A stretch of DNA of 64,000 bases from Sedimentisphaerales bacterium (lineage in GTDB: Bacteria; Planctomycetota; Phycisphaerae; Sedimentisphaerales; Anaerobacaceae). The DNA lies in NCBI GenBank assembly GCA_963708075.1, contig OY970194.1:3904001-3968000 (forward strand), in the 5' to 3' direction. Numbering within the stretch: position 1 is the stretch's first letter; the number at the start of each line of letters is the position of its first letter. This document shows positions 33,101-53,308 of this stretch, piece after piece. Position numbers and translations under genes: made by a program. The notes under the pieces were generated by a model. It worked only from the letters and a program-made list of their open reading frames with translations. It did no database searches and had not been told where the DNA came from.

Positions 33101-33378
33101 TATTTATCTTCCGGCAATACGATCGCCGAGCCGCCGCGGTCAGAGGCCACTAAGCCCTGCGTCGATTGGAAGCCATAGCCCTTTTCGGATGTGAAGGCTT
33201 CCGTGACGGTTACTTTGGTGAAACCGACGCGGGCGGCGGAAGTAGGTGTGCCGAACTGGAACCTGGCCACTATCGCGGCCTGTCGGTTCGTCGCCACCCC
33301 GCCTGGGGGAGGATCATTGACGGCGGCAGACTTTTCTCCAGTACCTGCCAACACCACAGCGAGTAGCCATAACCACAT
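30144..33378 (-). CDS. Secreted GH123/DUF4091-like glycoside hydrolase with C-terminal CBM4/9-like domain; frameshift near 31166
   Basis: Signal peptide after GGAGGA RBS; GEFEPATF, YFYPIDEP, WELCREGVDDCRY; NLIGDPSFE module in the second frame. Confidence 0.65.
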
Positions 33379-33456
33379 CTCTGTCCTCCTTCTGCCAATC
33401 GTGTGCACGCTCGCATCCTTCGGATGGCATGATTTCCCGCCCCGGCCACTCCTGCG

Positions 33457-36343: not shown

Positions 36344-37951
36344 CTTCTCTCCTGCTTCGATGCGGTCTTCTTTTGCGCGGCCTCTGCGAGAGGATAGCGG
36401 CGGACCTCCACGTCGTTCTTCTGCTTCCCGCCCGGCGTGCTGCGGCCATCCGTGACAACTTTCTCCATCAAGGCACGCATCTCGGCGACGAGCTCAGGCT
36501 TCTCTGCGGCAAGGTTCGTCTTTTCACCGATATCGTCAGCAAGGTTGTAGAGCTGGACATCGGTCCTTGCTTTCGGGTCTTGCTCCAGGATGAGTTTCCA
36601 CGGGCCACGACGCAGACCGGGAACACCGTTGGATGCACAACTGACGGCATGTTCGCGAACCGGCTGGTCCCCGCCCTTGAGCAGCGGCAGCAGGCTGAAG
36701 CTGTCCTCGCCGGCATTGTCCGGCAATCTCATGCCAAGAACATCGGCCAACGTGGCGATGAGATCGGCGTGGTGAACGAGCTGCTCGCACACCGCACCCG
36801 GTTTTACCTCGCCGGGCCAGCGTACGATGAACGGCACGCGATGCCCGCCTTCGAACACAGCCCCTTTGTAGCCACGGAGCGGACCGCTCGGAAAATGGCC
36901 CTTCATTTCGAGCTCGTCCGCGCCGATGTAGGGAGCACAGCCATTGTCGCTGGTGAACAAGACGATGGTGTTCTGGGCCGCACCACTTTCGCGCAGCGCC
37001 TCGAGCACACGACCCACCACGGCGTCGGTTCTCCATCACGAGATCGGCATAGAGGTTCAAGCCGCTCTTGCCGAGCCAGGGCCCGTTCACGGCCAAGGGC
37101 GTGTGCGGAGACGTGAGTGGCAAATAGAGCAGGAATGGCTGCTTCGCCCTCACTTGGCGATGGATGAAGTCCACTGCACGGTCGCCAAGCGTGGGGAGGA
37201 TAGCTTCGAGCTGCCAGTCCCGCAGCGCCGGCCCTTGAAGACTGGCCTGGTTCGTCGCCAGCTTATCCACCGGCAGCAACTCGCTCGGGATGCCCACGGT
37301 GCGGTCGTTCTCGATGAAACAATATGGCGGCCAATTGGGCACATCGGTACCGAAGTACTCGTCGAAGCCGCGCGTGGTCGGCCCGCCCGGGATGGGTCGG
37401 GAGAAAACGTCTCGCCACGTCGCACGGTGCGCATCGGTGACGGTGGTGGAGACCTGGCCGCCACCGCCGGCCTGGCCGCCGAACCCGGTGAAGTGCGGCC
37501 GCTGTTCCTCCGTGATCGGCCAGTCGCGACCGAGATGCCATTTGCCGATGCACGCGGTGCGATAGCCGTGCTGCCTGGCGAGGCCGGCCACTGTGAGCCG
37601 GTCCGGTGCGATGAGCGGCGCACCCCATACGGAAACGATCCCTTGCTGCAGCCGCGACCGCCAATGATAGCGGCCCGTCAGCAGCGTGTAACGTGACGGC
37701 GAGCACACGCCGGAACTGGAGTGGGCGTCCATGAAGCGCATTCCCTCAGCAGCCAGGCGGTCCACATTCGGCGTGGGAATCTTCCCGCGTTGCGGATTGT
37801 AACAGTGAACGTCGCCGTAACCCAGGTCATCGGCGAGGATGATGACGATGTTGGGCTTGCCCGAGGAAGCTGCCCGGGATATCGCCGGGACGGCGCCAAT
37901 CCCCACTCCGACCACCAGCGCCAACGTGATGAATGAGACTCGATGTTCCAT
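36340..37951 (-). CDS. Arylsulfatase A-like sulfatase; frameshift at about 37029
   Basis: VCSPSRYTLLTGR, GKWHLG; the ORFs join as VMETDAVVGRVL after removing one base. Confidence 0.9.
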
Positions 37952-37957
37952 GTCACG

Positions 37958-37966
37958 ATTATAGCA
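37958..37966 (-). promoter_or_regulatory. Extended -10 element, probably giving a leaderless mRNA
   Basis: Minus strand TGCTATAAT 6 nt upstream of the ATG at 37951; no RBS. Confidence 0.5.
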
Positions 37967-38465
37967 CCCTCGCTGCCCCTTTGCAGCAGGCAATATGTGG
38001 CGTGGGGACATCCCATAGAGTACAGGTATTGTCCCATCGTAAGTAGATATGACTGTAGAACTTGCGACATCGCCCGGCGGAAGCATTTGCCTCACCTTCT
38101 TGGTCGATGAGCCTCTATGAACCATGAAACAGAATCTGTGGCGCAAAGAGGTATATCGACCGCTGTGACGCAGAGATTGCTGGAGCACTCCGGTCCACAG
38201 CTCACCAATGACGTATGCACAAATGTCGATCCCGTGCTGTGTCAGGCGATCAGTTAGTTGCTGGTGTCGGAATGGGTTTGATGGCCATCTGACAGTGGTC
38301 GATCTCACCGAGCGACTGCGATTCAGATAGTCTCCGTGGAAGACCTGGCCGGTCATGGAGATGGGCACAAGAATCCTTTTCGGAGGTTGTGCCAGTGCCC
38401 CTATTTCCATGCAGGCAGGTGCGTCAGCTATGTCAGAATAGATCCAGAGTATACAGGAGGGGACC

Positions 38466-38690: not shown

Positions 38691-39491
38691 ATGAACACAG
38701 TCCAGGCATACAGATTCTGCGTCCTTCCCTACGCCAACGCCCTTCCCCTCGTCCACTTCATGACAGACGTCTATCCCCCAGCGAAGCTGTTTTACCGTGT
38801 GCCACGATCAGCGGTCGGAGGCTTGTTAGAGGGCGTAGTTGACGCGGCGTTGATTCCCATTGTCGATTGCTTCGCCCATCCCGATCTCGTGATGATTCCG
38901 GGATTGGGCATTTGTGCCGACGGCGACGTTACGAGCGTTCTCCTGCAATGCCGTCGGCCGCTGTCGCAGGTCAGAGTCGTCGGACTTGACCCCGAGTCCA
39001 GAACATCGAATACCCTCGTCCAAGTGCTGATGCGGGACCACTTTCGGATCTCTCATCGCGTTGAATACAGCCTGTGTGATGATGAGGCGGATGCCTGCGT
39101 GTGCATCGGCGATCGCGCCCTGTGTGCGGCGCCGGCGGTGGAAACGTATGATCTCGCCGGGGAATGGAAGAAGATGACCGGCTTACCGTTCGTCTTCGCC
39201 GTCTGGGCTGTGCAGCGGTCGTGCCCTGATCTCGAGGAAATCTCGTGGATTTTGCACCGCGTCAGGGATCGTGGATGCCACGCCATTGGCGAACTGGCAC
39301 AGCTCTGTGCGCAGCGGCTGGGTCTGCCTGAGAACCGTTGCCATGAGTACCTTGCGAATCGCCTGTACTACGATGTGGGGCCCGCGGAATGTGAGGGCAT
39401 GGGCTTGTTCCGAGGTCTCGCCGCGAGCCTCGTCAGACAAGGGGCAGACCACAGACAAGGGCAGAATACCCCAGTCCCCGAGTGGAGTTGA
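38691..39491 (+). CDS. mqnA: Chorismate dehydratase (futalosine pathway)
   Basis: YANALPL, ICADGDVTSVLL, SRTS, IGDRAL, DLAGEWKKMTGLPFVFAVW. Confidence 0.93.
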   Translation: MNTVQAYRFCVLPYANALPLVHFMTDVYPPAKLFYRVPRSAVGGLLEGVVDAALIPIVDCFAHPDLVMIPGLGICADGDVTSVLLQCRRPLSQVRVVGLDPESRTSNTLVQVLMRDHFRISHRVEYSLCDDEADACVCIGDRALCAAPAVETYDLAGEWKKMTGLPFVFAVWAVQRSCPDLEEISWILHRVRDRGCHAIGELAQLCAQRLGLPENRCHEYLANRLYYDVGPAECEGMGLFRGLAASLVRQGADHRQGQNTPVPEWS

Positions 39492-39492
39492 C

Positions 39493-41670
39493 ATGTTACA
39501 ACAATGGAATGAACGAATCTCCCCGGAAGAGGCGCTGAACCTCTTGACAAAAGCGGACACGGCCGAGCTGATGGCCCGGGCTGATAAGGTCCGCCGGCAA
39601 AGACACGGTGCGAACGTCTACCACGTGCACAGTCTGAACCTGAATCCCACCAATCTATGCGAGAATCGTTGCGGCTTGTGTGCATTCTGGCGCGAAGCCG
39701 GGTCGGGCGAGGCTTATACACTAAGCCTTCAGCAGGTTGAGGAAAGGCTCGAGAGAGCCAGAGGATGGGGACTCACCGACGTTCACATCGTCGGCGGCCT
39801 GAACCGGGAATTGGGCCTTGACTACTATGTCGAGTTGCTTCGCATCACCAAGCGGGTGCTGCCCACGACAGCGATACAAGCCCTGACTGCCGTCGAGGTC
39901 CAGTGGCTTTCGGATCGTGCCGGCAAATCAGTGGCCGAAGTGCTGGCAATGCTGAAGGCAGCCGGCCTGGATGCCCTGCCGGGCGGAGGAGCGGAGATCT
40001 TCTCCACACGGGTCCGAGAGAATATTTGCCCAAAAAAGCTTCCCGCTGATCAATGGCTCCATGTGCACCACATCGCCCACGACCTGGGTATCCCGAGCAA
40101 CGCGACCATGCTCTTCGGACACGTCGAAACCCCGGAAGAGATCGTGGACCATCTATGCAGACTCAGGACTCTGCAGGACCAGACCGGAGGTTTTCAGGCC
40201 TTCTGTCCTCTTCCTTTCCACGCGAAGGGCACGCAGATCGGTGTGGCGCGAGGTCCGGGCGGGCATGCCATCGCCCGGATCGTGGCCCTGGCCCGCATCT
40301 TTCTCGACAACTTCCCGCATGTTCGAGTCCTGGCCAATTTCCTCGACCGCAAGCTGCTGCAGACGTTGCTTTTCTGCGGGGCCGACGACATCGGCGGCAC
40401 CAGCATCGACGAGCAGATCGCTCGCTCAGCCGGAGCTTCCGACGACTGCTCGTTCCACGACCCTGAGGAGATGGCGACTTTCATACGGGAACTTGGACTT
40501 CGTTCGGTACTCACGAGCAGCCTGTATGACCATCGCAGCCGAAGACAACCGCAGGCGCAGGTCCCGTTGCTCGCTTCAAAGGCGGCAAGGGCTTTGCAGA
40601 AAGCAGAGGCTGGACAGCGGCTGAACGCCGAGGAAGCGACATGGCTCCACGATACCCTGCCGTTCTACGAACTGGGACGGATCGCCCATGAGCATCGCCG
40701 GCAAGTCATCGGCGACCAGCGATCCACGTTCATCATCGATAGAAACATCAGCTTCACGAACGTCTGCACCGTCGGATGCAAATTCTGTGCGTACCACAAG
40801 GGGCCCAGGGATGGCGATGCATTCACGATGTCGATTGAAGAGATCGTGCGACTCGTGGAGGAGGCGGCCGGCCTCGGCGCCACCCAGATCATGCTTCAAG
40901 GCGGCCTGAATCCGGCCCTGAGTTTCTCCTGGTATAAGGACATGCTTCGGGCCATCAAGGATCGTGTCCCCGCTGTCTGGCTGCATTCGCTGTCCCCCGC
41001 GGAGGTGCTGTGGCTCGCGCAGCGCTCCCATCTGCCCCTCAGGGACACCCTTGTGCAACTGCGAGAGGCCGGCTTGGATTCGCTACCGGGAGGCGGCGCC
41101 GAGATTCTCGTGGATGAGGTTCGCCAAAGAGTCAGCCCGGCGAAGATCACGACCCCTCAGTGGCTTGAAGTCATGGAGATAGCCCACAGTCTGGGTATGG
41201 GCACGACGGCGACGATGGTCTATGGCCTGGGCGAGACGACAGCCGATCGCGTGCAACACCTGCTGCACGTCCGCGACCTTCAGGATCGCACCGGGGGCTT
41301 CCGGGCCTTCATTCCCTGGAGTTTTCAGTCGAATCACACCCGGCTCTCCGAGCGGCCGCAAACCGGCGTGGATTACCTTCGCATGGTCGCCCTGTCCCGC
41401 CTGGTTTTGGATAATGTTGAGCACATCCAGGCCGGGTGGGTCACCGAGGGACCGTATATGGCCCAGATCGCCCTGACTTTTGGAGCGGACGACTTCGGCG
41501 GCGTCCTGATGGAAGAGAGCGTGGTCAAGGCCACCGGCATCAATCACACCGTGACGGCCGAACAAGTAATCGCCCTGATCGCCGAGACCGGGATGACCGC
41601 CGCCCAGCGAGATACGGAGTACAAGACTCTTCGAACCTTCGACAGGCAAAGGACCCTGAAAAGCGCGTGA
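39493..41670 (+). CDS. mqnE-mqnC: Fused double radical SAM protein: aminofutalosine synthase MqnE-like (N) + cyclic dehypoxanthine futalosine synthase MqnC-like (C)
   Basis: Two CxxxCxxC motifs (NPTNLCENRCGLC; DRNISFTNVCTVGCKFC), two PGGGAEI motifs, SNATMLFGHVE, FIPWSFQ, IQAGWVTEG, GADDFGGVLMEE. Confidence 0.88.
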   Translation: MLQQWNERISPEEALNLLTKADTAELMARADKVRRQRHGANVYHVHSLNLNPTNLCENRCGLCAFWREAGSGEAYTLSLQQVEERLERARGWGLTDVHIVGGLNRELGLDYYVELLRITKRVLPTTAIQALTAVEVQWLSDRAGKSVAEVLAMLKAAGLDALPGGGAEIFSTRVRENICPKKLPADQWLHVHHIAHDLGIPSNATMLFGHVETPEEIVDHLCRLRTLQDQTGGFQAFCPLPFHAKGTQIGVARGPGGHAIARIVALARIFLDNFPHVRVLANFLDRKLLQTLLFCGADDIGGTSIDEQIARSAGASDDCSFHDPEEMATFIRELGLRSVLTSSLYDHRSRRQPQAQVPLLASKAARALQKAEAGQRLNAEEATWLHDTLPFYELGRIAHEHRRQVIGDQRSTFIIDRNISFTNVCTVGCKFCAYHKGPRDGDAFTMSIEEIVRLVEEAAGLGATQIMLQGGLNPALSFSWYKDMLRAIKDRVPAVWLHSLSPAEVLWLAQRSHLPLRDTLVQLREAGLDSLPGGGAEILVDEVRQRVSPAKITTPQWLEVMEIAHSLGMGTTATMVYGLGETTADRVQHLLHVRDLQDRTGGFRAFIPWSFQSNHTRLSERPQTGVDYLRMVALSRLVLDNVEHIQAGWVTEGPYMAQIALTFGADDFGGVLMEESVVKATGINHTVTAEQVIALIAETGMTAAQRDTEYKTLRTFDRQRTLKSA

Positions 41671-41678
41671 CACTGCCA

Positions 41679-43166
41679 ATGACAGCCCATGAGACGGTTC
41701 TACTGACAGGCATCACAGGGTCCATCGGAAGCTGGGTCGCCGGAACGATCCTGCAGGACGGCGGGCGAATCGTGGCCATCGTCCGGGCCGATACCGAGTC
41801 TGCCGCTGCCGCCCGAGTGCGCGAGGCACTGGCGGTCGTTAGCGTCCAAGAGCACGCCGATCATGTCAAGGCGGTGTGCGGGGACATCTGCGACGGCCAG
41901 CTTGTTGGACATCTCATCAGGGGGGAGACGGGAATATCGCACATCGTGCACTGCGCCGGCATGGTGGAGTTCGGGCAGGAGTTCGCGGCGTTGAGCCATC
42001 GAGTCAACGTGGAGGGAACCGCCAACCTGCTGACGCTGGCCGAGAAGCTCAGGGTCCCCTTTTGTCATTTCAGCACCGCCTACGTTGCCGGCGACCGACA
42101 GGGGCGGGTGTTCGAACATGAGACTTCTATGGGTCAGCAGTTCCACAATCCCTATGAGTCTTCCAAGTGCCAGGCCGAGTTGTTGGTCCAAGACTGGGCG
42201 ATGCGCACAGGTCTTGGTGCGTTCATGTTCCGGCCGAGCATCGTTGTCGGGGATAGTCGGCAAGGACGCATCGTCCACTTCGACGGGCTCTACAACTTCA
42301 TGCGCATGCTCGACAGCGTCGCAGGGGCCGTCGGCACGCGAGAGTTCCGTGTCGTAGCCAACCCGGATGCGACGAAGAATCTTGTGCCCGCCGACTACGT
42401 GGCCCGTGCCGCCTGGCACATTATCAGGACAAGTGCTCCCCGGACCTACCATATCACAAATCCTCAGCCAGTGTCGCTTGCAGTGCTCCGGGACATCTTT
42501 GCCGATCTGTTCGCCGTCCCCGGGGCACGGCTTGTGCGGGAGGAGGAATTCCGTCGGAAGAAACCCGATAGATTCGAGTCGATGTATCAAAAAGCGGCCG
42601 TTCAGTATGCCCCGTATCTGGCCGCAGAGCCGGTTTTTGACCGGACGAACACAGACACTGCCCTGCGTGACACTTCCCTGATGCCGCCGGAGATGAATAT
42701 GGCTTTCTTTCAAAAACTGCTGGACTATGCACGAAGAACCAAGTGGGGCAAGGCACACACGGAGCCTCCTGTCATGCTCCCGGGGCGAGAAAGATTCGTG
42801 GAACAGTATTTCGACAGCTTCCTGACCGAGAAGATGCACCAGCAACTGCTGCCCAACCTTAAGCATCTGACCGCAAGCTGCCGGATTGCCGTGGAAGACT
42901 TGCCCGGGCGGTCGTGGTCGCTGAGAATCGACCAGGGCCGGCTTGAGGAGATATCGCAAAATGGCATGGTCTGTCAGTGCACGTTCTCCCTCCACAGCGA
43001 CACCTTCTCGGCGATTGTCGGCGGCAGGCTCGCCCCGCAACAGGCATTCTTTCAGAGGAAGATCCATATCGCAGGCGACATGGAGACGGGCCTGAAATTG
43101 GCCACTGTCCTGGCGGCGTTCTTCAAGAAATGGCCCTACGACATGGAGACGCACCGTGTGGGATAG
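41679..43166 (+). CDS. Extended SDR (thioester/acyl-CoA reductase-like) fused to a C-terminal SCP2 lipid-binding domain
   Basis: TGITGSIG, STAYVAG, YESSK, RPSIVVG; C-terminal IVGGRLAPQQAFFQRKIHIAGDM SCP2 signature; alternative GTG start at 41667. Confidence 0.85.
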   Translation: MTAHETVLLTGITGSIGSWVAGTILQDGGRIVAIVRADTESAAAARVREALAVVSVQEHADHVKAVCGDICDGQLVGHLIRGETGISHIVHCAGMVEFGQEFAALSHRVNVEGTANLLTLAEKLRVPFCHFSTAYVAGDRQGRVFEHETSMGQQFHNPYESSKCQAELLVQDWAMRTGLGAFMFRPSIVVGDSRQGRIVHFDGLYNFMRMLDSVAGAVGTREFRVVANPDATKNLVPADYVARAAWHIIRTSAPRTYHITNPQPVSLAVLRDIFADLFAVPGARLVREEEFRRKKPDRFESMYQKAAVQYAPYLAAEPVFDRTNTDTALRDTSLMPPEMNMAFFQKLLDYARRTKWGKAHTEPPVMLPGRERFVEQYFDSFLTEKMHQQLLPNLKHLTASCRIAVEDLPGRSWSLRIDQGRLEEISQNGMVCQCTFSLHSDTFSAIVGGRLAPQQAFFQRKIHIAGDMETGLKLATVLAAFFKKWPYDMETHRVG

Positions 43167-45334
43167 TCTCACGACAATCCTGGCCGACAGAAGTCGATGG
43201 ATCGCCGTGGCCTGCCTGTGCAGCGTCGCGATTCCCGTCTATTGGCTCAGAAATGCCCGCGTCGATAACTCAATCGAGGTGTGGACGGGGACAAGGAGCA
43301 GGACGCACCGCAGCTATCAGCAGTTCCTAGAGAAATACGGGAACGAGGAGTTCGTCGTGATTGCCGGCGAGGCAGAGGACCCGCTCTCCGAGGAGACATT
43401 GGCCTTTCAGGGCGACCTGGCGTCGCGCCTGCGACAGATCGATGGGGTGGAAGGCGTTCTGGATATTACGCAGGCGGCCGCCGCCTTCGAAAAGTACAGG
43501 CCCGAGGACTGGAAAGAGTCTCTCAGCGGCACCGGCTTTTTTCGGAATCTGCTGCTCGGCAAAGATGGACGCACATTCGGCGTCATCGCCTGGCTGCGGA
43601 AGATTGATGATCCCCCTTCGAGAAGGCTCGTGGTCGAAGAGATCGAGTCGGCGGTTGCCCAAGTCGCCGGTGACGGGAGGCAGATGCATCTGGCCGGGAC
43701 GCCGCTATTGAACGTAGCCCTCGACCGCGGCTCCCAGGAAGCATCCCGGCGGATTCTGCCCGCGGCCCTGGCTGTCTCCCTGGTTATTCTGGCGATCGTT
43801 CTGCGACGCGTCAGTGGAGTCATCGCGGTGATGGCCGCGGTGGGCGTGACCACGCTCTGGACTGTTGGCCTGATGGTTCTGGCCGGCAGAACCTTCAACA
43901 TGGTAACGGTGGCTCTCCCTTCCCTGCTGACGGTTCTTTCGCTCTCGGCCGGGATTCACATCGTCTTGCGAATCCAGTCGCTGCTGGCTGACATGGGGGA
44001 CCGCCGCGCCGCCGTGCGCGAGACTATTCGGGAAGTATTGCCGGCGGTTCTTCTATCGAATGTCACCACGGCCATCGGATTCGGCTCCTTGATGATCTCG
44101 GACATGCAGCCTGTCTCGGACTTCGGGTTGTTCGCCGCCGTCGGCATGATGCTCTCATTCCTTTTCAATGCGACCATGGTGCCGGGAATTCTCTCCTGGC
44201 TGCGTCCTGGTGCTATCACAGTCTCTGCGAGAACCGACGCACTGGACCTCGCCCGTGGGGCGGGCCGTCGCATCACGAAGAATCTGGTTCCTGGGCTCCG
44301 CGCTCGTCATACTGGTCGTCTCACTGCTGCTTATGACGGGACTTCGCGTGGAGTCGAATGTGCTGAAGTTCTTCCCGGCCGATTCAAAGGTCCGCCGGGA
44401 TTACCAGTTCGTTGCCGAGCAGCTCACGGGCCTGTACACCATCGAGCTCGATGCCGTGACCGACTCGCAGAACGGGAGCGTCCTGCTCAAGCAGATCGAG
44501 CAGCTAGGCACTGAACTGGCCGCGCGATCCGAGGTGGCTCAGGTGATTCACTACAAAAGTATCGCCACCGCCCTGGACCCAATTCGCCAGTCTGTTTTCG
44601 TCGAGACGGCCAGGGCTTCGGAGAATCCCCTGAAGCTCCTGGCGAAGAAATACCGTCATGCGGACGACGGTCGAATCTCGCTGCGAATGTCGATCCTGGT
44701 GCGTGCAATGTCAGGCACGGACTTCTATGCCTTGATGGATTTCGCACAGCAGGCGGCACAGCGGCTTGAGCCTCCGGCCACATACACGCTGACCGGCGTG
44801 GTCCCGCTGCTGAATTCGGCCCAGCGATCTCTGATCACCACGCAGGTCCGCAGTTTCGCCACAGCGGCAATCACAGTGCTGGCCCTGGTTGGCCTGTTCT
44901 TCTGGTCCTGGAGGGTCTTCCTCGCGGCCGCACTGCCCAATCTGCTCCCGACGGCGATCCTCTTTGCCGCGATGGCGGTTCTGAAGATACCCTTGGACGC
45001 GGCGACAGTCATGATCGCAGGCGTAGCTATCGGCATCGCCGTCGATGATACTTTCCACTTCTTCTCCTGCTACCGCGAGGCGAGGCAATCCGGGCAGGAC
45101 AGCCCGACGGCGATTTACAACAGCTTTCGCACGACCGGACGAGCCATCTTGTTCACGTCCGTCGTCGCCACCGCCGGCTTTGTCATTCTTCTGCTGGCCG
45201 AGTTCAAGCCGATCCAGTACTTTGGCCTTCTGGCCGGCGTGACCATGCTCACAGCCAGTGCGGCCGATTTCCTCGTGCTGCCGGCCTGCGTGGCTTCTGT
45301 GAACCTGTGGCATCGACAAGGGCAAGAACAGTGA
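43156..45334 (+). CDS. MMPL/RND-family transporter; frameshift at about 44232
   Basis: Two repeats of TM + soluble loop + 5 TM; TTAIGFGSL, IGIAVDDTFH, DFLVLPA. Confidence 0.88.
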
Positions 45335-46413
45335 ACGTGAAATCATCGTTTCTCGTCAGACTTGAGCACGTCCTTCGAATCCACTTCGATGCCAATCGCG
45401 GTGCGCCCTATTGGCTCGAGAAACAGCGTGAGCTTGGGATCGACGCCATCGAACACATTCGAACCATCGAGGACCTCGCCCTCCTCGGGCCTATGGATGA
45501 GCGTGCGCTGTCCGAGCGCCCTATCGAGGATTTCATTCCCAGGGTATTTCGCGAAAACAACGATCATCTTCTCGCCGAGACAGCCGGGACCCTGGGCAGG
45601 CCTAAAACCGCCGTCCACAGAGCGGATGAATTCGAAGCGGCCTTCATCGTGCCATTCGTCAAGGCCGCCGGCAGAGCGGACTTTCCCGAAGGCGGCCACT
45701 GGCTGTTCATCGGGCCGACAGGGCCACACATCATCGGCCGGGCGGCACGGCGGTGCGCCAGAGCCCTTGGCGCCGCGGACGCATTCACGGTGGATTTCGA
45801 TCCGCGATGGGCCAAGAAACTCCCGGCCGGCAGCTTCGCCGCGAAGCGATACCTGGCGCACATCGAGGAACAGGCTTTGGCCGTTCTCGAAGTCCAGAAT
45901 ATCGAGGTGCTCTTCGTGACGCCCGCTGTCTTAAGCAGTCTGACCGAGAGAATCAGCGAGGCGAAGCGCATGGCCATTCGCGGAATCCACCTGGGCGGCA
46001 TGGCAGCCTCGGCCGAGTTCATGCAGCGCACGACGGGACTGTTCCCCAACGCAGTGATCCTGTCAGGCTACGGCAATACTCTGTTTGGAATGATGCCGCA
46101 ACTTTGCTACTCGCATGAGACAGGTTTCGACTACTTCCCGCATGGCGACCGTCTCGTCGTTCGCCTGATCCCACTGTGCGAGGATGGGGACAAGCCGGAA
46201 ACCGCCGCCCATGTCGATTACGGCCGGCGGGGCCGGGTCATGGTGCACCGGCTGGATGAAATGCAGTTTCTGCCGAACCTGCTCGAACGGGACACCGCCG
46301 TACGGATTCCTCCGGAGCCCAGCGCCGCAGCCGACGGCTTCTTCCAGGATGGTCTCCGCGACCCGCAGCCGATCGTCAGCGAAACCATGAAGCCGGCCAT
46401 AGGATTATATTGA
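45331..46413 (+). CDS. EhpF/GriC-like aryl-carboxylate adenylating protein
   Basis: HF...GAPYWL, ETAGTLGRPK, GPTGPHIIG, VDFDPRWAKK, GYGNTL, LERDTAVRIP and C-terminal GLY match my recollection of the phenazine EhpF/grixazone GriC family. Confidence 0.78.
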   Translation: MNVKSSFLVRLEHVLRIHFDANRGAPYWLEKQRELGIDAIEHIRTIEDLALLGPMDERALSERPIEDFIPRVFRENNDHLLAETAGTLGRPKTAVHRADEFEAAFIVPFVKAAGRADFPEGGHWLFIGPTGPHIIGRAARRCARALGAADAFTVDFDPRWAKKLPAGSFAAKRYLAHIEEQALAVLEVQNIEVLFVTPAVLSSLTERISEAKRMAIRGIHLGGMAASAEFMQRTTGLFPNAVILSGYGNTLFGMMPQLCYSHETGFDYFPHGDRLVVRLIPLCEDGDKPETAAHVDYGRRGRVMVHRLDEMQFLPNLLERDTAVRIPPEPSAAADGFFQDGLRDPQPIVSETMKPAIGLY

Positions 46414-47123
46414 TGTTGCAAGCTGCATCGGAAGAACATGTGACGTTCCTGAGCGGAGCGGTTCGGCTCAGAGGAGTCCTCTCCTACCCGGAGCAGGCCC
46501 GGCCGGAGCTTGCGGTGCTGTTGTGCTCTCCGCACCCGCACTTTGCCGGTGACATGAACAACAACGTGATCTGCGCCGTCGCCCAACGTCTCGCCGCTCG
46601 CTGCGCGGTCATGCGATTCGATTACCGGGGTGTCGGGGAAAGTGAGATCAGCCTGGGGCCCGACGAGTCGGCCTTTGACTACTGGAATGAGATTGAGGAG
46701 ACGAAGGATTATCGCGATGCCGTCGAGGATGTCGCTGCGGCGGCCCGGGCACTGCTCGCGGCGACGGAGTCTCTCGACGTGGGCCTGTCAGTCGTGGGCT
46801 ATTCGTTCGGTGCGGCCACAGGCATGCTCTTTGCCTGCCACGAGAGCCGCGTGGAGAAGATGGTTGCGATCGCCCCGCCGCTGGGCAAGGTGCCTTTCGA
46901 ATTCCTTTCGGATTGCTGCAAGCCCAGCCTCCATATAGCCGGGAGGAACGACTTCCTGTATTCGGATGAGAAGATGGCCGCGTTTCGTCGGTCCGTTGGA
47001 CCGGCGGCGAGAGTTGTGGTCCTGGATGAGGCGGACCACTTCTTCCGAGGCGACGAGAACTCGGTGGCACGACAAATCGAGGAATATCTGCTTGGTACAA
47101 AAGGAAATCAGCATGGGTCTTGA
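46413..47123 (+). CDS. Alpha/beta hydrolase (COG2945-like)
   Basis: PHPHFAGDMNNNV, RFDYRGVGES, GYSFG nucleophile elbow, ADHFF. Confidence 0.88.
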   Translation: MLQAASEEHVTFLSGAVRLRGVLSYPEQARPELAVLLCSPHPHFAGDMNNNVICAVAQRLAARCAVMRFDYRGVGESEISLGPDESAFDYWNEIEETKDYRDAVEDVAAAARALLAATESLDVGLSVVGYSFGAATGMLFACHESRVEKMVAIAPPLGKVPFEFLSDCCKPSLHIAGRNDFLYSDEKMAAFRRSVGPAARVVVLDEADHFFRGDENSVARQIEEYLLGTKGNQHGS

Positions 47124-49080
47124 GAAGAAACCCGAGATTCTCGCTCCGGCCGGCACGCTGGATGCGGTCCGCCAGGTGATCGATGCCGGCGCCGACGCTG
47201 TCTACGTCGGCGGCAAGGGTCTCAATATGAGGCAGCATCGGTCAAGCTATAACCTGACCGAGCCGGAGATCGCCGAGGCAATCGAGCTCGTTCACCGCGA
47301 GGGCAAGAGGCTCTATTTCACGCTGAATAGTCTGATCTTCGATTCGCAGCTCCCGCAGTTGCGGGAAGTTCTGGCCATGCTCGGCCGGCTCGGCCCCGAC
47401 GCCATCATCCTCCAGGATCTGGCCGTGGCAAGCCTGGCTCGGGAGATTTGCGTGCACGTGCCGCTCCACGCCAGCACGATGATGAACGTGCACAATGCGG
47501 AAACCGCCCTGGCGCTGAAGATGATGGGATTTGTGCGGGTCATTCCGTCCCGCGATATCCCGCTCCACGAGATCCGTCGTATCGGCGAGCGCTCGGGCCT
47601 GGAGATGGAGTGTTTCGTCCATGGCGATATGTGCATCTCGCAAAGCTCGCAATGCTACCTCAGCGGGATTCTCTTTGGCGAAAGCGCCAACTGCGGCCGC
47701 TGCATGAAGCCGTGCCGGTGGCAGTGGAAACTGGCCGTCCGTCAAGGCGACGGCGAATCGCTCGATCATGGAGAGGGCTACCTGCTGGCCCGCAAGGACC
47801 TGTGCATGCTGCCGCACATTCCGGCACTGGTCCAAAATGGCATCGCTGCCCTGAAGATCGAGGGCCGGATGCGGACGGCGGAGTTCCTGGCCCCTGTCGT
47901 GGCTCTTTATCGCAAGGCGATTGACTCCTATTTTGAAGATCCCGTGGGCTACACCACGAACGCGGGCGATATCCACAACCTCATCTCGCAACGCGTCCGC
48001 GAGATGACCACCGCGCACATGTTCGCCAATCCCGGCCGCGAGGGCGTTGACACGACGGGCAAGCGAGAACCCCGTTTCTTCAGCCATGCCTCCCCGGCCG
48101 CGCAGTTGACGGTGGGACAAGACGTGGCTCCGCACACCCCTGCAAAGTGGCCCGAACTGATCGTTCATGTCTCAACCGTGGCCGGGGCTGAAGCGGCTGC
48201 CGGCGCCGGCGCGAACGCGATCTACTTTTGTGGCGAAGGCTTCTGTCTGCACGGGGGAGTCCCGAGTGCGGAGGCCATCGGCAGCTTCGCCCGCAAGGCT
48301 GCTCAGAACAGCATTCGTATTGGTGTGATGATGCCGCACGTTTGCGATGAGCGGGACATGGCGGAGTGGAGGCGCCGCCTGCACGAACTCATCGCCTGGG
48401 GGAATCTCACCGTCGGTGTGTCGAATCTGGGCAGCCTGCAGATGGCTCGTGAGGAAAGGTGGCGTGACATCTTGACGGATTACCCGCTGAACACGGCCAA
48501 TTCCATTGCTGTCGATGAGCTTTCGACCCTTGGGGCACAGCGCGTCACGGCCTCGGCGGAGCTCACTTTTCAGCAGTTGTCTGCGTTCACAAAGGCGGTG
48601 CGGATGCCCATCGAGATCATCGGCCAAGGCCCAGTTTGTGGCATGCTGCTGGAGCATTGCGTGTTGGCGACTGCCGGCGGGCAGAACCCGCAGGGTGTTT
48701 GTTCGATGCCGTGCCGACGGGGTGTCTACGCACTGGAGGACACAGCATCACAGATCTTTCCGCTGGAGACGGACCGTCGTTGCCGCAATCATATCTTCAC
48801 GCCGGCGGATGTCTGCGTGTTGCCCAATCTCTCGCGGATGCTGTTGCTGGGCATCTCCGGCTTGCGGATTGAAGGCCACTTGGACAAGCCTGAAACGGTC
48901 GCAATCGTCACGCAAATCTATCGTGAAGCGATGGACTGTTTGAGAAATGGCCAAGCCATCGATGTCGCCGACGGGCTCTCGAAGATCTCCGCCGCCACAG
49001 AGCGCCCGCTCAGCGACGGGCCTTTTGACTTCCAGTCCATCAGGGTGATAGACAAGGAGAAAGAGCTTGCCCGAACATGA
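47113..49080 (+). CDS. U32-family Fe-S protein with two tandem U32 domains (O2-independent hydroxylase family)
   Basis: PEILAPAG, HASTMMN, Cx6Cx15Cx3C, LKIEGRMR; second domain Cx6Cx13Cx3C and LRIEG. Confidence 0.87.
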   Translation: MGLEKKPEILAPAGTLDAVRQVIDAGADAVYVGGKGLNMRQHRSSYNLTEPEIAEAIELVHREGKRLYFTLNSLIFDSQLPQLREVLAMLGRLGPDAIILQDLAVASLAREICVHVPLHASTMMNVHNAETALALKMMGFVRVIPSRDIPLHEIRRIGERSGLEMECFVHGDMCISQSSQCYLSGILFGESANCGRCMKPCRWQWKLAVRQGDGESLDHGEGYLLARKDLCMLPHIPALVQNGIAALKIEGRMRTAEFLAPVVALYRKAIDSYFEDPVGYTTNAGDIHNLISQRVREMTTAHMFANPGREGVDTTGKREPRFFSHASPAAQLTVGQDVAPHTPAKWPELIVHVSTVAGAEAAAGAGANAIYFCGEGFCLHGGVPSAEAIGSFARKAAQNSIRIGVMMPHVCDERDMAEWRRRLHELIAWGNLTVGVSNLGSLQMAREERWRDILTDYPLNTANSIAVDELSTLGAQRVTASAELTFQQLSAFTKAVRMPIEIIGQGPVCGMLLEHCVLATAGGQNPQGVCSMPCRRGVYALEDTASQIFPLETDRRCRNHIFTPADVCVLPNLSRMLLLGISGLRIEGHLDKPETVAIVTQIYREAMDCLRNGQAIDVADGLSKISAATERPLSDGPFDFQSIRVIDKEKELART

Positions 49081-50359
49081 GCCCATAGGCCCGCAGGCGA
49101 TTCTGGCCAAGAAGCAGCAATACCTGATTCCCTGCTCGTACCATTTCTACAGGGATCCGCCTCAAATCGTGCGCGGCCAGGGGATCTACGTGTACGATTC
49201 CGCCGGCCGCAGGTACATGGACCTCTACTCCGGCGTGAGCGTTCATGCGCTGGGCCACTGCCATCCGGAGATGGTCGAGGCCATCTGCCAGCAAGTCAGA
49301 ACCCTGCAACATACAAGCACGATCTACCTGACAGAGCCCATTGTGAACCTGGCCGAGCAACTGGCGAAGGTGCTTCCCGGGCAGATTCGCAGGACTTTCT
49401 TCTGCTGCAGCGGCAGTGAAGCCAATGAAGGGGCGGCTTTGCTGGCGACGCTCCATACCGGCCGAAGCGAGTTCCTGGCCTTCCAGAATGGCTTGCACGG
49501 CCGCACGAAGTTGGGCATGAGCCTGACAGGCCTTGGTCTTTGGCGCACCGATCCCAACCCTGTCGGCGGGATTGTGCACGTGCCGCCGCCGCACTGCCGA
49601 AGTTGCCCGTTTGGGCAAAGTCTCGGCCAATGCCAATATCAGTGTGTCGCCGCTGTGGAGACCGCCATTCGCACGGCCACCAGCGGCAAGCCCGCCGCCA
49701 TGTTCGTCGAGCCCGTGCAAGGCAATGGCGGCATCATGGTCCCGCCGCCGGAGTACTTCCCCAAACTGCGTGAGGTCCTGAACCGGTACGGCATGCTGCT
49801 CATCGCTGATGAAGTCCAGACGGGTTTTGGACGCACCGGCAGAATGTTCGCTATGGAGCATTGGAACATCGCGCCCGATATTGTCACGGGCGGCAAGGCG
49901 CTGGGCGGGGGCACACCGGTGGGTTTCTTCTCCACGACCGACCAAATCGCCGCTAGTTATACCAGGCCCGGCGCATCGACCTTCGGCGGCAATCCCGTGA
50001 CGGCTCAGGCAGGCCTCAAGTTCCTGGAGATCCTGCAGCGTCAAGCCCTGGTGGACCACTGTGCCCGGATGGGAACCCTGTTACAGGGTCGCCTCAAGAA
50101 AATGGCTGAGAAGTCCGATATGGTCTCGGACGTTCGGGGTCTCGGATTGATGGTGGGGGTTGAGATCGCCGGGCATGGAACGCTATCTGCCGCCGAATGT
50201 ACGGATCGTATCCTAGAACGCATGAAAGATGTGGGGTATTTGCTGGGCAAGACCGGCCCCAGCCGCAATGTCCTGACATGGATGCCCCCTCTGATCATTC
50301 GACAAGAAGAGCTGATGGAGGCTATCGACGCCCTTGAGAAGACTCTCCAAAGTCTGTGA
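49067..50359 (+). CDS. Class III PLP aminotransferase
   Basis: SGSEANE, EPVQGNGG, IADEVQTGFGRTG, PDIVTGGKALGGG, STFGGNP; TTG start with AAGGAG RBS. Confidence 0.93.
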   Translation: MPEHEPIGPQAILAKKQQYLIPCSYHFYRDPPQIVRGQGIYVYDSAGRRYMDLYSGVSVHALGHCHPEMVEAICQQVRTLQHTSTIYLTEPIVNLAEQLAKVLPGQIRRTFFCCSGSEANEGAALLATLHTGRSEFLAFQNGLHGRTKLGMSLTGLGLWRTDPNPVGGIVHVPPPHCRSCPFGQSLGQCQYQCVAAVETAIRTATSGKPAAMFVEPVQGNGGIMVPPPEYFPKLREVLNRYGMLLIADEVQTGFGRTGRMFAMEHWNIAPDIVTGGKALGGGTPVGFFSTTDQIAASYTRPGASTFGGNPVTAQAGLKFLEILQRQALVDHCARMGTLLQGRLKKMAEKSDMVSDVRGLGLMVGVEIAGHGTLSAAECTDRILERMKDVGYLLGKTGPSRNVLTWMPPLIIRQEELMEAIDALEKTLQSL

Positions 50360-51329
50360 CTCCCGGAGGCAGCCCGTTGCCAGGCTGCTCCTGGCAATAG
50401 CGGTATTCGCCATTCTCCTGGCGAGCTGCGCCTCATTCAAGCACCTGACGCTGGTGAGCAACACATTCCCGAGCGCCAAGGATTGTGGCAAATGCCACGT
50501 TGAGATCTACCATGAGTGGTCGCAGTCGGACCATGCTCACGCCTATACGAACCTGCACGTTCGGGCAGCAACAGATGATTACAGGTTCGAGAGCTGCCTG
50601 AGCTGCCACTCGCCCGAACCCACGCTGACGGATCGCGCTCCCACCGTTCGGGCGGCCGGCCGTGAGGAAGGGGTCACCTGCGTCGCCTGTCACCTCGATC
50701 AGGGTGCTCTTGCGGGTCCGCTGGAGCCGACCGGCAAAGTTCATCCGCATCCGATCAGCGTTCGGCCGGAAATCTACCACAGCAGTGGCATTTGCGGCCG
50801 ATGTCATGAAGGCACCATGACGCAGTGGGAATCAGTCCATGTGGAAAAACGAACTTGCCAACAGTGCCACATGGAATCCGTCACACGCAAGGTCACCCAG
50901 GCCACGGGCGGAATATCCAATGTCCTGGTGGCCATGGAGAAACAGGTCCCCCAGAGACGCCACAAGTTCTGCATTCTCGGCGACGCGCAATCACAAGAAC
51001 TCGTCACCCTGACGATCGAATCCTTGGGCGGCACGCTCGATGTTGTGGTCGAGAACAACCTGCCCCACAGCCTTCCGACAGGCGATTTCGGCTTTCGAAT
51101 CGTGACTCTGGAAGTCTTCGGCATCGACGCCGGCGGCAAGTCGATTCTCGCCGGAAGCTGGGAACTGGCTGGGGAATCCTCGACCGCCATTCCTGCGCAA
51201 GGGGCACGAGCGTGGTCATTGGATATCGGCCCCGGCTGCAAAACGGCCCGCGCCGTCCTGACTCGACGCAGCTACGACCAGGAGGCTCTCGTGCTGGCGG
51301 AGGCACAGGTGGAGGTGGCGAAGCCATGA
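50334..51329 (+). CDS. Pentaheme cytochrome c lipoprotein
   Basis: Lipobox LASC; CGKCH, CLSCH, CVACH, CGRCH, CQQCH; PHSLPTGD; start uncertain. Confidence 0.87.
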   Translation: MRRLSKVCDSRRQPVARLLLAIAVFAILLASCASFKHLTLVSNTFPSAKDCGKCHVEIYHEWSQSDHAHAYTNLHVRAATDDYRFESCLSCHSPEPTLTDRAPTVRAAGREEGVTCVACHLDQGALAGPLEPTGKVHPHPISVRPEIYHSSGICGRCHEGTMTQWESVHVEKRTCQQCHMESVTRKVTQATGGISNVLVAMEKQVPQRRHKFCILGDAQSQELVTLTIESLGGTLDVVVENNLPHSLPTGDFGFRIVTLEVFGIDAGGKSILAGSWELAGESSTAIPAQGARAWSLDIGPGCKTARAVLTRRSYDQEALVLAEAQVEVAKP

Positions 51330-53308
51330 AGAAGGAGACGATTCGTCGCTTCACCCGGCCGGAATTAGGGCTACACTGGAGCCAGGCAGTGCTATACATC
51401 CTGCTGTTCGGCTCGGGCACGCTTCTGCTGGTCGGGCGAATCCTCGATCATCCGCTCGCCTCTCAGAAGTCTCTCGGGGCGCTCCACCGCGTTGCGGGCG
51501 TCGCACTTGTCGTACTCCTGGGCCAGGCTCTGTTGCTCAGTATCGTTGCGGACAACTTCCGCAGCTTCTGGCGCACGCTGCGAGAGTGTCTGCGCTGGCG
51601 ATGGGGTGACGTCGTCTGGCTCGTCAAAGTCCCGTTCAATGCCATCACGCGACGAGTGAAGCTGCCGCCCGCGGATCGCTTCAACGCGGGCCAGAAGCTC
51701 CACGTGCTGGTCATCGTCTGTGTGCTGGTCGGCTTCAGCATCTCGGGCCTGCTGATGATGCTCATACCCGGAGCGCTCGGGCCATGGATCATCCACCTGA
51801 TCTGTTTCATCCCGGCCGCCGCTTTCCTGGCGCTGCATCTGTTCCTGTCACTCCTGAATCCCGAGACTCGAAAGGCCCTCCCGTCGATCTTCTCGGGCCA
51901 CATGTCGTTGGAACTCGCTCGACGACACCACGGTCTGTGGGCAGGACAACCCGACTCGGCGGAACACCCATCCTATGTATCCCTCCGGATGGTGCTCATC
52001 ATGATCGCTCTGGTAATGGTCGTCGCCGGGGTCTTCGCGATATGGTATGGACCGGCAAAAGTCTCCGGCGTTGTGGCAGCCACAATCACCCGCCACGGCA
52101 CAAATGCAATCACGCCGGCGTCTCTTTCCAAGGTCCATGACGGTGACAACGCGGATACCGACAACTGCGCATCTTGCCATTTGCCGATGGCATCGCCGCC
52201 TTCGGAGAAATGCCTTGTCTGCCACACGGAGATCCAGGAGCGAATGACGGCCGGATCGGGCTTCCATGGCAAGATTGCCGGCTCGTGCAGACAATGCCAC
52301 ACGGAGCACAAAGGCACCGAGGCCATCCCCATATCACTGGACCGACAGGCATTCAACCACGGCAACACCAACTTTCCGCTCGATGGCAAACACCAGGCCG
52401 TGCCATGTGAGAAGTGCCACGAAAGGACCGGCCCGGACACTGCCGGCAGAATGCAGTACACCGGGCTTGACTACAAGAGTTGCATAAATTGCCACTACAA
52501 CCCGCACAATGACCCGCGCGCCAGCCACTGCCTCGAATGCCACACTATGCAAGGCTGGGACCGCGATAATCTGACGTTCGATCATGATCGTGACAGCCAA
52601 TTCCCACTCCTGGGTGCACACGCCAAGCCGGATTGCGAGAAATGTCATCCCCGCCAGACAACAAATGGCCGGGTGCAGGTCCGCCTGTTTGACGTTGGCA
52701 AGTCCTGTCAGGATTGCCATGCCGACCCGCATGCCGGCCAGATGAGCTCTGCGTGCGGCACCTGCCACACGGAGACAGGCTGGACCGGGAACAACCTCGT
52801 ATTCTCGCATGATAAGCACTCATCGTTCCATCTGGATAGGCTTCATTCCTCAGCGAGTTGCGATGACTGCCATGGCCGACAGGCCAGGCGTTATCGTCCG
52901 CTGCCACGCGAATGCGACACGTGCCATACGATCCAACAGGCCGCCATGCAGGGAACCGCACGGGTGCTCTCCGGGCCCCCTGATCCTCACAATGACCGAC
53001 TCTCCTGCACGGATTGTCACGATGTGAACACACCAAGACAACGCCAGGAGGAGTTCGCCGCCAGGTGTGCAACCTGTCACAATTCCCGATATGGCGCCCT
53101 GTTCTACTCCTGGGCGAATGCTCTTGATGAAAACCGTGCTTCAATCAAACAGAACCTGAAACGCATCGATGATCCGAATGACGCGAGAAGGCTCCGGCTC
53201 GAGCAAATCCTGGAAGATGCGGCCGCAGCAGGTTTCCACAACCTGAATCTGACTCAGGAGATCTTGCGGGCAGAAACTCCGACACATCCAGAGAACGTCA
53301 ACAAATAA
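51326..53308 (+). CDS. FdnI-type diheme cytochrome b fused to a 13-heme cytochrome c domain
   Basis: LHWSQ, LHRVAG, RFNAGQKL, IHL, LHLFL, HHGLW; fifth TM helix; 13 CxxCH motifs with FxH..FPLxGxH repeats. Confidence 0.9.
   Translation: MKKETIRRFTRPELGLHWSQAVLYILLFGSGTLLLVGRILDHPLASQKSLGALHRVAGVALVVLLGQALLLSIVADNFRSFWRTLRECLRWRWGDVVWLVKVPFNAITRRVKLPPADRFNAGQKLHVLVIVCVLVGFSISGLLMMLIPGALGPWIIHLICFIPAAAFLALHLFLSLLNPETRKALPSIFSGHMSLELARRHHGLWAGQPDSAEHPSYVSLRMVLIMIALVMVVAGVFAIWYGPAKVSGVVAATITRHGTNAITPASLSKVHDGDNADTDNCASCHLPMASPPSEKCLVCHTEIQERMTAGSGFHGKIAGSCRQCHTEHKGTEAIPISLDRQAFNHGNTNFPLDGKHQAVPCEKCHERTGPDTAGRMQYTGLDYKSCINCHYNPHNDPRASHCLECHTMQGWDRDNLTFDHDRDSQFPLLGAHAKPDCEKCHPRQTTNGRVQVRLFDVGKSCQDCHADPHAGQMSSACGTCHTETGWTGNNLVFSHDKHSSFHLDRLHSSASCDDCHGRQARRYRPLPRECDTCHTIQQAAMQGTARVLSGPPDPHNDRLSCTDCHDVNTPRQRQEEFAARCATCHNSRYGALFYSWANALDENRASIKQNLKRIDDPNDARRLRLEQILEDAAAAGFHNLNLTQEILRAETPTHPENVNK

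Follow-up and report, generated by a model that had tools for sequence, protein, structure and literature searches.

We describe a ten-gene operon on the + strand, at positions 38691-53308 of a 64,000-nucleotide stretch (hereafter the window) of the genome of a Sedimentisphaerales bacterium (GCA_963708075.1, contig OY970194.1), in which neighboring genes overlap or stand no more than 8 bases apart. At its center a protein with two tandem U32 domains is paired with a class III aminotransferase, behind the futalosine-pathway genes mqnA, mqnE, and mqnC. In our favored reading the operon branches off the futalosine pathway to make a tailored naphthoquinone-type redox carrier in place of menaquinone, a scheme to which we give as a whole a probability of roughly 40%. 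That the U32-aminotransferase pair acts on an intermediate or product of this pathway we regard as probable. Gene families, their coupling, and their distribution were observed, and all of the chemistry is inferred. A first-pass annotation, made from the DNA alone, had proposed an O2-independent U32 hydroxylase for a naphthoquinone scaffold. The gene context and the distribution across genomes support such an enzyme, for a scaffold that would derive from futalosine, but the framing in terms of UbiT, UbiU, and UbiV is not upheld. The unit had also been placed at 42780..49080, which leaves out the downstream aminotransferase and cytochromes that belong to it, and nothing had been said of the aminotransferase as the key partner, of the EhpF homologue, or of the absence of mqnD, mqnP, and mqnL.

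Coupling of the pair and its link to the futalosine pathway

From 596 genome loci and 570 metagenome loci, the best 80 of each by similarity were analyzed, giving 160 loci that are partly redundant (Selenomonadaceae). Represented among them are Brocadiales, Sedimentisphaerales, Negativicutes, Clostridium, Paenibacillus, Peptococcaceae, and others. The pair occurs in anammox bacteria and in many anaerobes of gut and soil; named isolates that have it are Sporomusa ovata, Selenomonas ruminantium, and Paenibacillus species. In 109 of the 123 loci having at least 1.5 kb of flank, the aminotransferase is encoded no more than 3.6 kb downstream of the U32 gene, and the window-type aminotransferase occurs in 122 of the 160 loci, compared with just 24 for the reductase of the operon. 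In 101 genomes of the Negativicutes, the class of Sporomusa ovata, drawn by taxonomy and at least 90% complete, the 54 that have the U32 protein are exactly the 54 that have the aminotransferase. In three Selenomonadaceae genomes whose U32 gene is unlinked, an aminotransferase orthologue (68-69%) is located elsewhere. A search of PDB sequences with the aminotransferase returned broad class III matches and no close specificity match.

A homologue of the PF04392 binding proteins, a family which we take to bind aromatic amino acids, is found in 20 of the 160 loci; where mapped, its gene directly precedes the pair. It would fit the proposal, in our view improbable, that the U32 protein alone tailors the quinone to a hydroxy-naphthoquinone and that the aminotransferase is a helper, recycling phenylpyruvate from prephenate or handling an aromatic amino acid. 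Phenylpyruvate is indeed the proposed co-product of U32 chemistry (excerpt of PMC10990095). However, an unrelated aminotransferase is kept in variant modules that have no U32 gene (see below). Nor do we know of a dedicated aminotransferase for UbiU/V, RlhA, or TrhP, which also counts against a helper role.

The pair follows the futalosine genes as well. By simple tally, with no statistical test, mqnC and the pair occur together in 49 of the 101 Negativicutes genomes, neither in 45, mqnC only in 2, and the pair only in 5, all five of which retain MqnP. In the window's genus, the tandem U32 protein and MqnC are found in the same 4 of 23 relatives (one other weak match is CofH), and MqnC exceeds its cut-off in 35 of 49 genomes picked from the loci. 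MqnD was found in none of the 101 Negativicutes, the same query matching in 3 of 3 control genomes; among the genomes picked from the loci it is present in those of anammox bacteria, Paenibacillus, and two others. In Paenibacillus a second MqnP, with 41% identity to the one in the standard mqn operon, adjoins the pair, and the pair is also kept in genomes having MqnP but no detected mqnA or mqnC.

The window's genome (G000) is one contig, 92.8% complete, in which MqnA, MqnE, and MqnC are all present. The genes mqnD, mqnP, mqnL, and mqnM were not found in it (no tblastn match at E 1e-3, no PF01977 match), and neither was MenB. The operon therefore cannot end in menaquinone by a known route, and its earlier description as a menaquinone-type operon has to be given up. 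The classical men pathway was set aside, MenB not being found in the genome. Elsewhere in the genome there are four UbiA-family genes, none of which matched MqnP queries. Two of them are of MenA type (G000:C1:996216-997334 and 4843496-4844473), and their presence in a genome without MenB suggests salvage of 1,4-dihydroxy-2-naphthoate.

The missing mqnD invites the main rival to our reading, which we consider unlikely, namely that the pair bypasses MqnD. It would act on cyclic dehypoxanthine futalosine (cyclic DHFL), the aminotransferase attacking the ribose aldehyde (compare HpnO and ribosylhopane) or the ring ketone and the U32 protein oxidizing or hydroxylating, to give 5,8-dihydroxy-2-naphthoate (DHN) or a different head group. 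A bypass would account for the absence of detectable MqnD from Negativicutes, 49 of whose 51 mqnC-positive genomes have the pair, and for the recruitment of mqnA, mqnE, and mqnC without mqnD into the operon. It also agrees with the report of menaquinone-6 (MK-6) as the only quinone of Lucifera butyrica (excerpt of PMC6315149). Yet the pair and MqnD coexist in anammox bacteria and Paenibacillus, the pair is kept in genomes lacking mqnA and mqnC, and three genomes (G091, G109, and G076) have mqnA, mqnE, mqnC, and the methylthioadenosine phosphorylase (MTAP)-like gene 'MqnZ' but neither MqnD nor a complete pair. The MqnD reaction, moreover, is a redox-neutral retro-aldol that needs no hydroxylase. 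A pure replacement of MqnD was accordingly downgraded, on the strength of the anammox and Paenibacillus genomes with MqnD and of 'MqnZ' without the pair. Were a bypass real, it would explain a futalosine pathway without MqnD in Selenomonas and relatives. Because the pair coexists with MqnD, is kept alongside MqnP where mqnA and mqnC are lacking, and has MqnD-family genes in or beside variants of its EhpF module (L314 and L334), we infer instead that it acts downstream of MqnD.

The missing mqnD in these taxa has been remarked on, and MqnZ proposed (excerpt of PMC4746308). In our loci 'MqnZ' is an MTAP-like gene following mqnC in Negativicutes and a syntrophomonad (L285:8008-8838, L286:12347-13195, and L290:11647-12495). 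No orthologue of it was found in the window's genome, which has only a generic MTAP (25-30% to MqnZ) together with MtnA and methylthioadenosine nucleosidase (MTAN); MtnA was present in 5 of 5 genomes tested. In the dihydroxyacetone phosphate shunt, a phosphorylase, an isomerase, and an aldolase act together, and by analogy such a set could do the work of MqnB plus MqnD. Separately, a third MqnE/MqnC-like radical SAM gene stands beside mqnE and mqnC at G064:C20:169111-172265 and in other Selenomonadaceae.

The tandem U32 family

The U32 gene (47113..49080) encodes a 655-residue putative Fe-S protein with two PF01136 domains over the cut-off, no DUF3656, and no further Pfam family. That the two domains are directly adjacent, as first described, is confirmed by these matches and by an AlphaFold model (pLDDT 88.8, pTM 0.90) with two consecutive beta/alpha repeat domains, which we read as two barrels. 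A fold search of the model against the PDB returned generic barrel proteins and the U32 protein Mk0906, with no functional clue. Two cysteine clusters had been described. The first, in the N-domain (C174-x6-C181-x15-C197-x3-C201), is invariant in 45 of 45 family N-domains. The second, Cx6Cx13Cx3C, exists in the sequence, but its first cysteine, C509, is conserved in just 6 of 48 aligned C-domains, a set that includes three long-RlhA C-domains. Since C516, C530, C534, and C557 are conserved in 33-34 of the 48, a second Fe-S cluster, if any, would have ligands other than this motif; C568 is likewise conserved in 34. Residues D172, K199, and M39 are specific to the family, each in 45 of 45 members.

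In an unrooted tree (LG+G4) of 33 chosen N-domains, the tandem U32 family forms one clade (100/99) apart from the RlhA, TrhP, and UbiU references, within which the aminotransferase-linked members form a subclade (95/95). The window protein lies outside the TrhP clade (99/99) and scores 209 bits for TrhP against a cut-off of 534. As the RlhA references are not resolved in this unrooted tree, the family could have branched off inside RlhA. The C-domains fall with RlhA2, the second domain of long RlhA proteins, and not with UbiV in a quick tree of 91 domains, thinned beforehand by dropping 24 locus or domain prefixes, in which UbiU and UbiV are each represented by one Escherichia coli reference and UbiV is a long branch of unsure position. 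Among the matches listed, the closest named relatives of the protein (65-82%) come from Phycisphaerales and Sedimentisphaerales assemblies.

The protein had been likened to UbiT, UbiU, and UbiV, which hydroxylate ubiquinone precursors independently of O2 (excerpts of PMC6747719 and PMC10990095), and the resemblance is real in the U32 fold, the four-cysteine motif, the occurrence of two U32 domains together, the SCP2 domain nearby, and the quinone context. It does not extend to membership. The U32 protein scores 178.9 bits for UbiU (cut-off 440) and 60.9 for UbiV (cut-off 275), and its N-domain, though 31% identical to UbiU, falls outside the UbiU clade. The SCP2 domain scores 42.5 bits against the UbiT cut-off of 46.9 (30% over 69 residues to E. 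coli UbiT), and it is part of a thioester-reductase-like enzyme that is absent from the Firmicutes loci. In contrast to the Ubi heterodimer, the window U32 is one polypeptide with an RlhA2-related C-domain, and it has a constant aminotransferase partner and futalosine rather than 4-hydroxybenzoate genes. The presence of an SCP2 domain and two U32 domains in one operon could still be taken for a Ubi equivalent making ubiquinone or another prenylated benzoquinone. We find this scarcely credible, given scores below all three cut-offs, a genome in which no UbiD was found, an operon with no prenyltransferase, and the nature of the four UbiA-family genes elsewhere, two of them MenA-type and none matching MqnP queries.

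Ancestry shared with RlhA, the 23S rRNA ho5C2501 synthase, has more to recommend it. The window protein has the two-domain layout (RlhA1 plus RlhA2), the Cx6Cx15Cx3C motif, and the related C-domain of long RlhA (excerpt of PMC5727448). In Table S2 of the same source, Selenomonas noxia, Mitsuokella, and Pelosinus have two entries of the RlhA1+RlhA2 type, against one in the listed rows for Veillonella parvula; the second is probably the tandem U32 family, judging by the listing. The C-domain grouping, the lack of RlhA resolution among N-domains, and this filing would all suit an RlhA-type RNA hydroxylase that is a mere passenger in the operon. We nevertheless hold this to be very improbable. DUF3656, whose presence the first-pass annotation had suggested checking along with other RlhA copies, is lacking in the tandem protein, and the genome's only DUF3656 belongs to a separate 622-residue frame (C1:2729674), which the N-domain tree places with E. 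coli RlhA. In 4 of 4 other pair-bearing genomes, too, there are separate U32 proteins of TrhP size and of long RlhA size. The family has its own clade and its own specific residues, and it stands in quinone operons across phyla. Grouping inside RlhA or TrhP, together with restored RNA hydroxylation in the corresponding mutant, had been named as the outcome that would overturn a quinone role. The evidence on grouping is divided: the protein has an RlhA-related C-domain and probably an RlhA listing, yet it has a clade of its own and no DUF3656, and it is not the RlhA of its genome. We conclude that the tandem U32 protein would resemble a UbiU/V-type hydroxylase in its working but is no member of UbiU/V, TrhP, or canonical RlhA. 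The family seems to be hidden in annotations as a second 'RlhA', although it tracks quinone genes across several phyla.

A sister group of the tandem U32 proteins (L091, L094, L104, L108, and L228) comes from syntrophomonads where named and has a cell-division-type gene context; no aminotransferase orthologue was found in two tested genomes of this group. Outside the window, at G000:C1:5278085-5281130, three co-directional genes appear to encode a type III polyketide synthase, a methyltransferase (both judged by eye), and a divergent single-domain U32. The latter was missed by the PF01136 genome search and shares 32% identity with the single-domain U32 found in the variant module described below.

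Operon parts and the two contexts of the pair

The operon begins with mqnA (chorismate dehydratase, 38691..39491, PF02621 E 4.9e-39), the sole PF02621 gene of the genome, which a quick tree places in the MqnA and not the MqnD clade. It is followed by a single-copy mqnE-mqnC fusion (aminofutalosine synthase plus cyclic DHFL synthase, 39493..41670) whose two radical SAM domains pass both NCBIfam cut-offs (TIGR03700 701 bits, TIGR03699 782 bits) and which is fused likewise in four relatives. These three functions are common to the futalosine pathway, whose MqnP, MqnL, and MqnM flank the pair in Firmicutes (compare excerpt of PMC4746308); in contrast, no MqnD, MqnP, MqnL, or MqnM was found in the window's genome, and a module that would activate the carboxyl group stands in for prenylation and decarboxylation. 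The module starts with a thioester-reductase-like short-chain dehydrogenase/reductase (NAD_binding_4, 41679..43166), to which, among solved structures, the reductase domain of MxaA (4u7w, E 1.5e-16) comes closest. The SCP2 lipid-binding domain noted earlier as fused to it is indeed at its C-terminus (PF02036, E 1.3e-14, residues 388-478); in anammox loci the two are separate genes. An MMPL/RND exporter (43156..45334) lies in two frames with PF03176 in each half.

Next is the EhpF homologue (45331..46413), predicted to adenylate an aromatic carboxylate, with a full-length match to EhpF (PDB 3l2k/3hgu, E 4e-36, residues 10-357). The aromatic-acid adenylating function of EhpF and GriC presumably applies to it. 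As in the EhpF/EhpG and GriC/GriD systems of aromatic-acid activation and reduction, a stand-alone adenylating protein stands beside a reductase, but the window reductase is a short-chain dehydrogenase with SCP2 instead of an aldehyde-dehydrogenase fold, an exporter and cytochromes are attached, and there are no phenazine or grixazone genes. An alpha/beta hydrolase with a Ser-Asp-His triad pattern (GYSFG, RNDF, ADHF; 46413..47123, by domain search and sequence inspection) may serve as a hydrolase or acyltransferase. The aminotransferase frame (49067..50359; PF00202 E 4e-102), a pyridoxal phosphate-dependent class III enzyme with its catalytic lysine motif, overlaps the stop of the U32 gene. 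The operon ends with a five-heme cytochrome c with a lipoprotein-like signal (LASC; 50334..51329; 5 CxxCH) and a membrane cytochrome b (PF01292) fused to a 13-heme cytochrome c (51326..53308; 13 CxxCH).

The pair occurs in two contexts that do not overlap, MqnP/MqnL in 14 of the 160 loci and the EhpF module in 29, with both in none. The 14 MqnP loci include some with MqnL or MqnM and sometimes a polyprenyl synthase, type II NADH dehydrogenase, ApbE, or ABC importer, while the 29 EhpF loci usually have the reductase, SCP2, and MMPL and often the hydrolase and cytochromes. The first set would add a prenyl tail and remove a carboxyl group, and the second includes an enzyme that would act on it. 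All named Brocadiales (anammox) loci that reach far enough upstream have the EhpF context, and the Firmicutes loci of the family are without SCP2, MMPL, EhpF, and reductase, several carrying a decarboxylase. In 301 genomes of the window's phylum, 22 besides the window's own have EhpF at 41% or more, of which 11 belong to family f41 and 2 to f90, with the tandem U32 beside EhpF. The two mapped f41 loci have the gene order of the named Brocadiales loci.

Variants of the module occur in other Planctomycetota (L311-L316, L333, and L334), with a PigE-like aminotransferase and sometimes a single-domain U32 or an AtaL-family or MqnD-family gene. In six fetched loci of families f30, f31, and f62, the aminotransferase is unrelated to that of the window (~30% identity), best matches PigE, and directly follows the reductase; 2 of the 6 have an unrelated single-domain U32. 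To one of these loci mqnE, mqnA, mqnC, and mqnD are attached, and in an f75 locus the run of genes includes an MqnD-family member. The occurrence of an unrelated aminotransferase and, in 2 of 6 loci, an unrelated U32 is counted here as convergence in favor of ring tailoring.

The same variants lend themselves to an acid-to-amine route, which we think distinctly unlikely. EhpF and the reductase would make an aldehyde from the naphthoate carboxyl group or from an SCP2-held fatty acyl thioester, the aminotransferase would convert it to an amine (aminomethyl-naphthoquinone, or a fatty amine to serve in an amide anchor), and the U32 protein would hydroxylate the ring separately. A reductase with a class III aminotransferase is known logic, as in myxochelin B and prodigiosin (PigE) synthesis, the window reductase is nearest to terminal reductases of nonribosomal peptide synthetases, and the PigE-like enzyme of the variants directly follows the reductase, with no U32 gene in 4 of the 6 loci. 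The window-type aminotransferase, in contrast, travels with the U32 gene and not with the reductase, and the Firmicutes loci have no EhpF or reductase while several have a decarboxylase.

A more distant EhpF group (L317-L324, 29-34% identity) is a different, conserved planctomycete system, its annotated loci encoding an aldehyde-dehydrogenase-like protein, an iron alcohol dehydrogenase, a radical SAM enzyme, a sodium symporter, and beta-propeller proteins.

Proposed route to a tailored quinone, and minor features

Under the favored branch reading, MqnA and MqnE-MqnC, assigned by family, would produce cyclic DHFL from chorismate, helped by a nucleosidase or phosphorylase of the housekeeping kind, and the cyclic DHFL would then be converted to DHN. 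The tandem U32 protein would hydroxylate a free ring carbon of the naphthoquinol without O2, the oxygen donor probably being prephenate, and the aminotransferase would swap the new ring oxygen for an amino group. EhpF would adenylate the carboxylate that is otherwise removed in menaquinone synthesis, and the reductase-SCP2 protein and the hydrolase would reduce this carboxylate or attach it to a fatty alcohol, replacing the prenyl tail. MMPL would export the product, and the cytochrome b/multiheme c pair would reduce and oxidize it. The substrate tailored by the pair in Firmicutes would be a prenylated quinone, the product of a route with MqnP/L/M. Ring hydroxylation by UbiU/V with oxygen from prephenate is a precedent for the U32 step (excerpt of PMC10990095). 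For the amination, Fur3/NphE is a pyridoxal phosphate enzyme that transaminates mompain, a hydroxynaphthoquinone, to 8-amino-flaviolin, although with a polyketide substrate, in an aerobic pathway, and with a cryptic amino group (excerpt of PMC11969235).

Several observations weigh against the scheme. Most directly, a genome in which neither MqnD nor an MqnZ orthologue was found leaves it unexplained how cyclic DHFL would become an aromatic ring. MK-6 is the only quinone reported for Lucifera butyrica (Sporomusaceae; excerpt of PMC6315149), a species that may have the pair, as 49 of 51 mqnC-positive Negativicutes do; similarly, Thermacetogenium phaeum is reported with MK-7 (excerpt of PMC3551663) and a Thermacetogeniaceae locus (L077) has the pair. 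No aminotransferase was found downstream in 14 of the 123 loci with sufficient flank, including a tandem U32 family member of 47% identity (L177:9989-11830) inside a YcaO/lantibiotic-dehydratase/nitroreductase cluster of the ribosomal-peptide (RiPP) kind, where recruitment to peptide modification is possible. The module can exist without the pair, since 4 of the 6 variant loci have no U32 gene in the locus and neither U32 nor aminotransferase was seen in L333 and L334. Related genomes are not independent, so the co-occurrence counts overstate the strength of the link. Class III aminotransferases, furthermore, usually act on aldehydes, and Fur3 presumably belongs to another aminotransferase class.

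A role in hopanoid or ladderane metabolism, considered in view of MMPL and SCP2, was set aside, because neither is present in the Firmicutes loci and the neighbors of the pair are quinone genes. Carried to its full extent, the branch reading would have anammox and other anaerobic planctomycetes make a nonisoprenoid, exported or lipid-anchored, futalosine-derived amino-naphthoquinone as an electron carrier with a dedicated cytochrome b/multiheme c chain. About half of the Negativicutes, some clostridia, and Paenibacillus would owe to the same pair a prenylated amino-menaquinone, the analogue of rhodoquinone among naphthoquinones, missed by routine quinone analysis. We offer this wider picture as speculation that is rather unlikely to hold in full. 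A literature search, in which subscription journals were mostly not covered, found no description of the U32-aminotransferase pair or the EhpF module, and most of the twelve U32 subfamilies are without an assigned substrate (excerpt of PMC10990095). If the branch reading is correct, O2-independent hydroxylation would gain a new substrate class, and an undescribed respiratory or shuttle quinone would exist in gut Negativicutes, acetogens, and anammox bacteria, whose electron carriers are incompletely known.

The MMPL gene is split by one extra base near 44232 that is missing in G015 and, at a depth of 3, in a contig from run X3, and the gene is a single frame in G015 and G009; the extra base is probably an assembly error or a strain change. 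Other genes of the window also appear to be split over overlapping frames (30144-33408, 36340-38410, and 56449-59140), and judging from these and MMPL the assembly may be prone to single-base errors.

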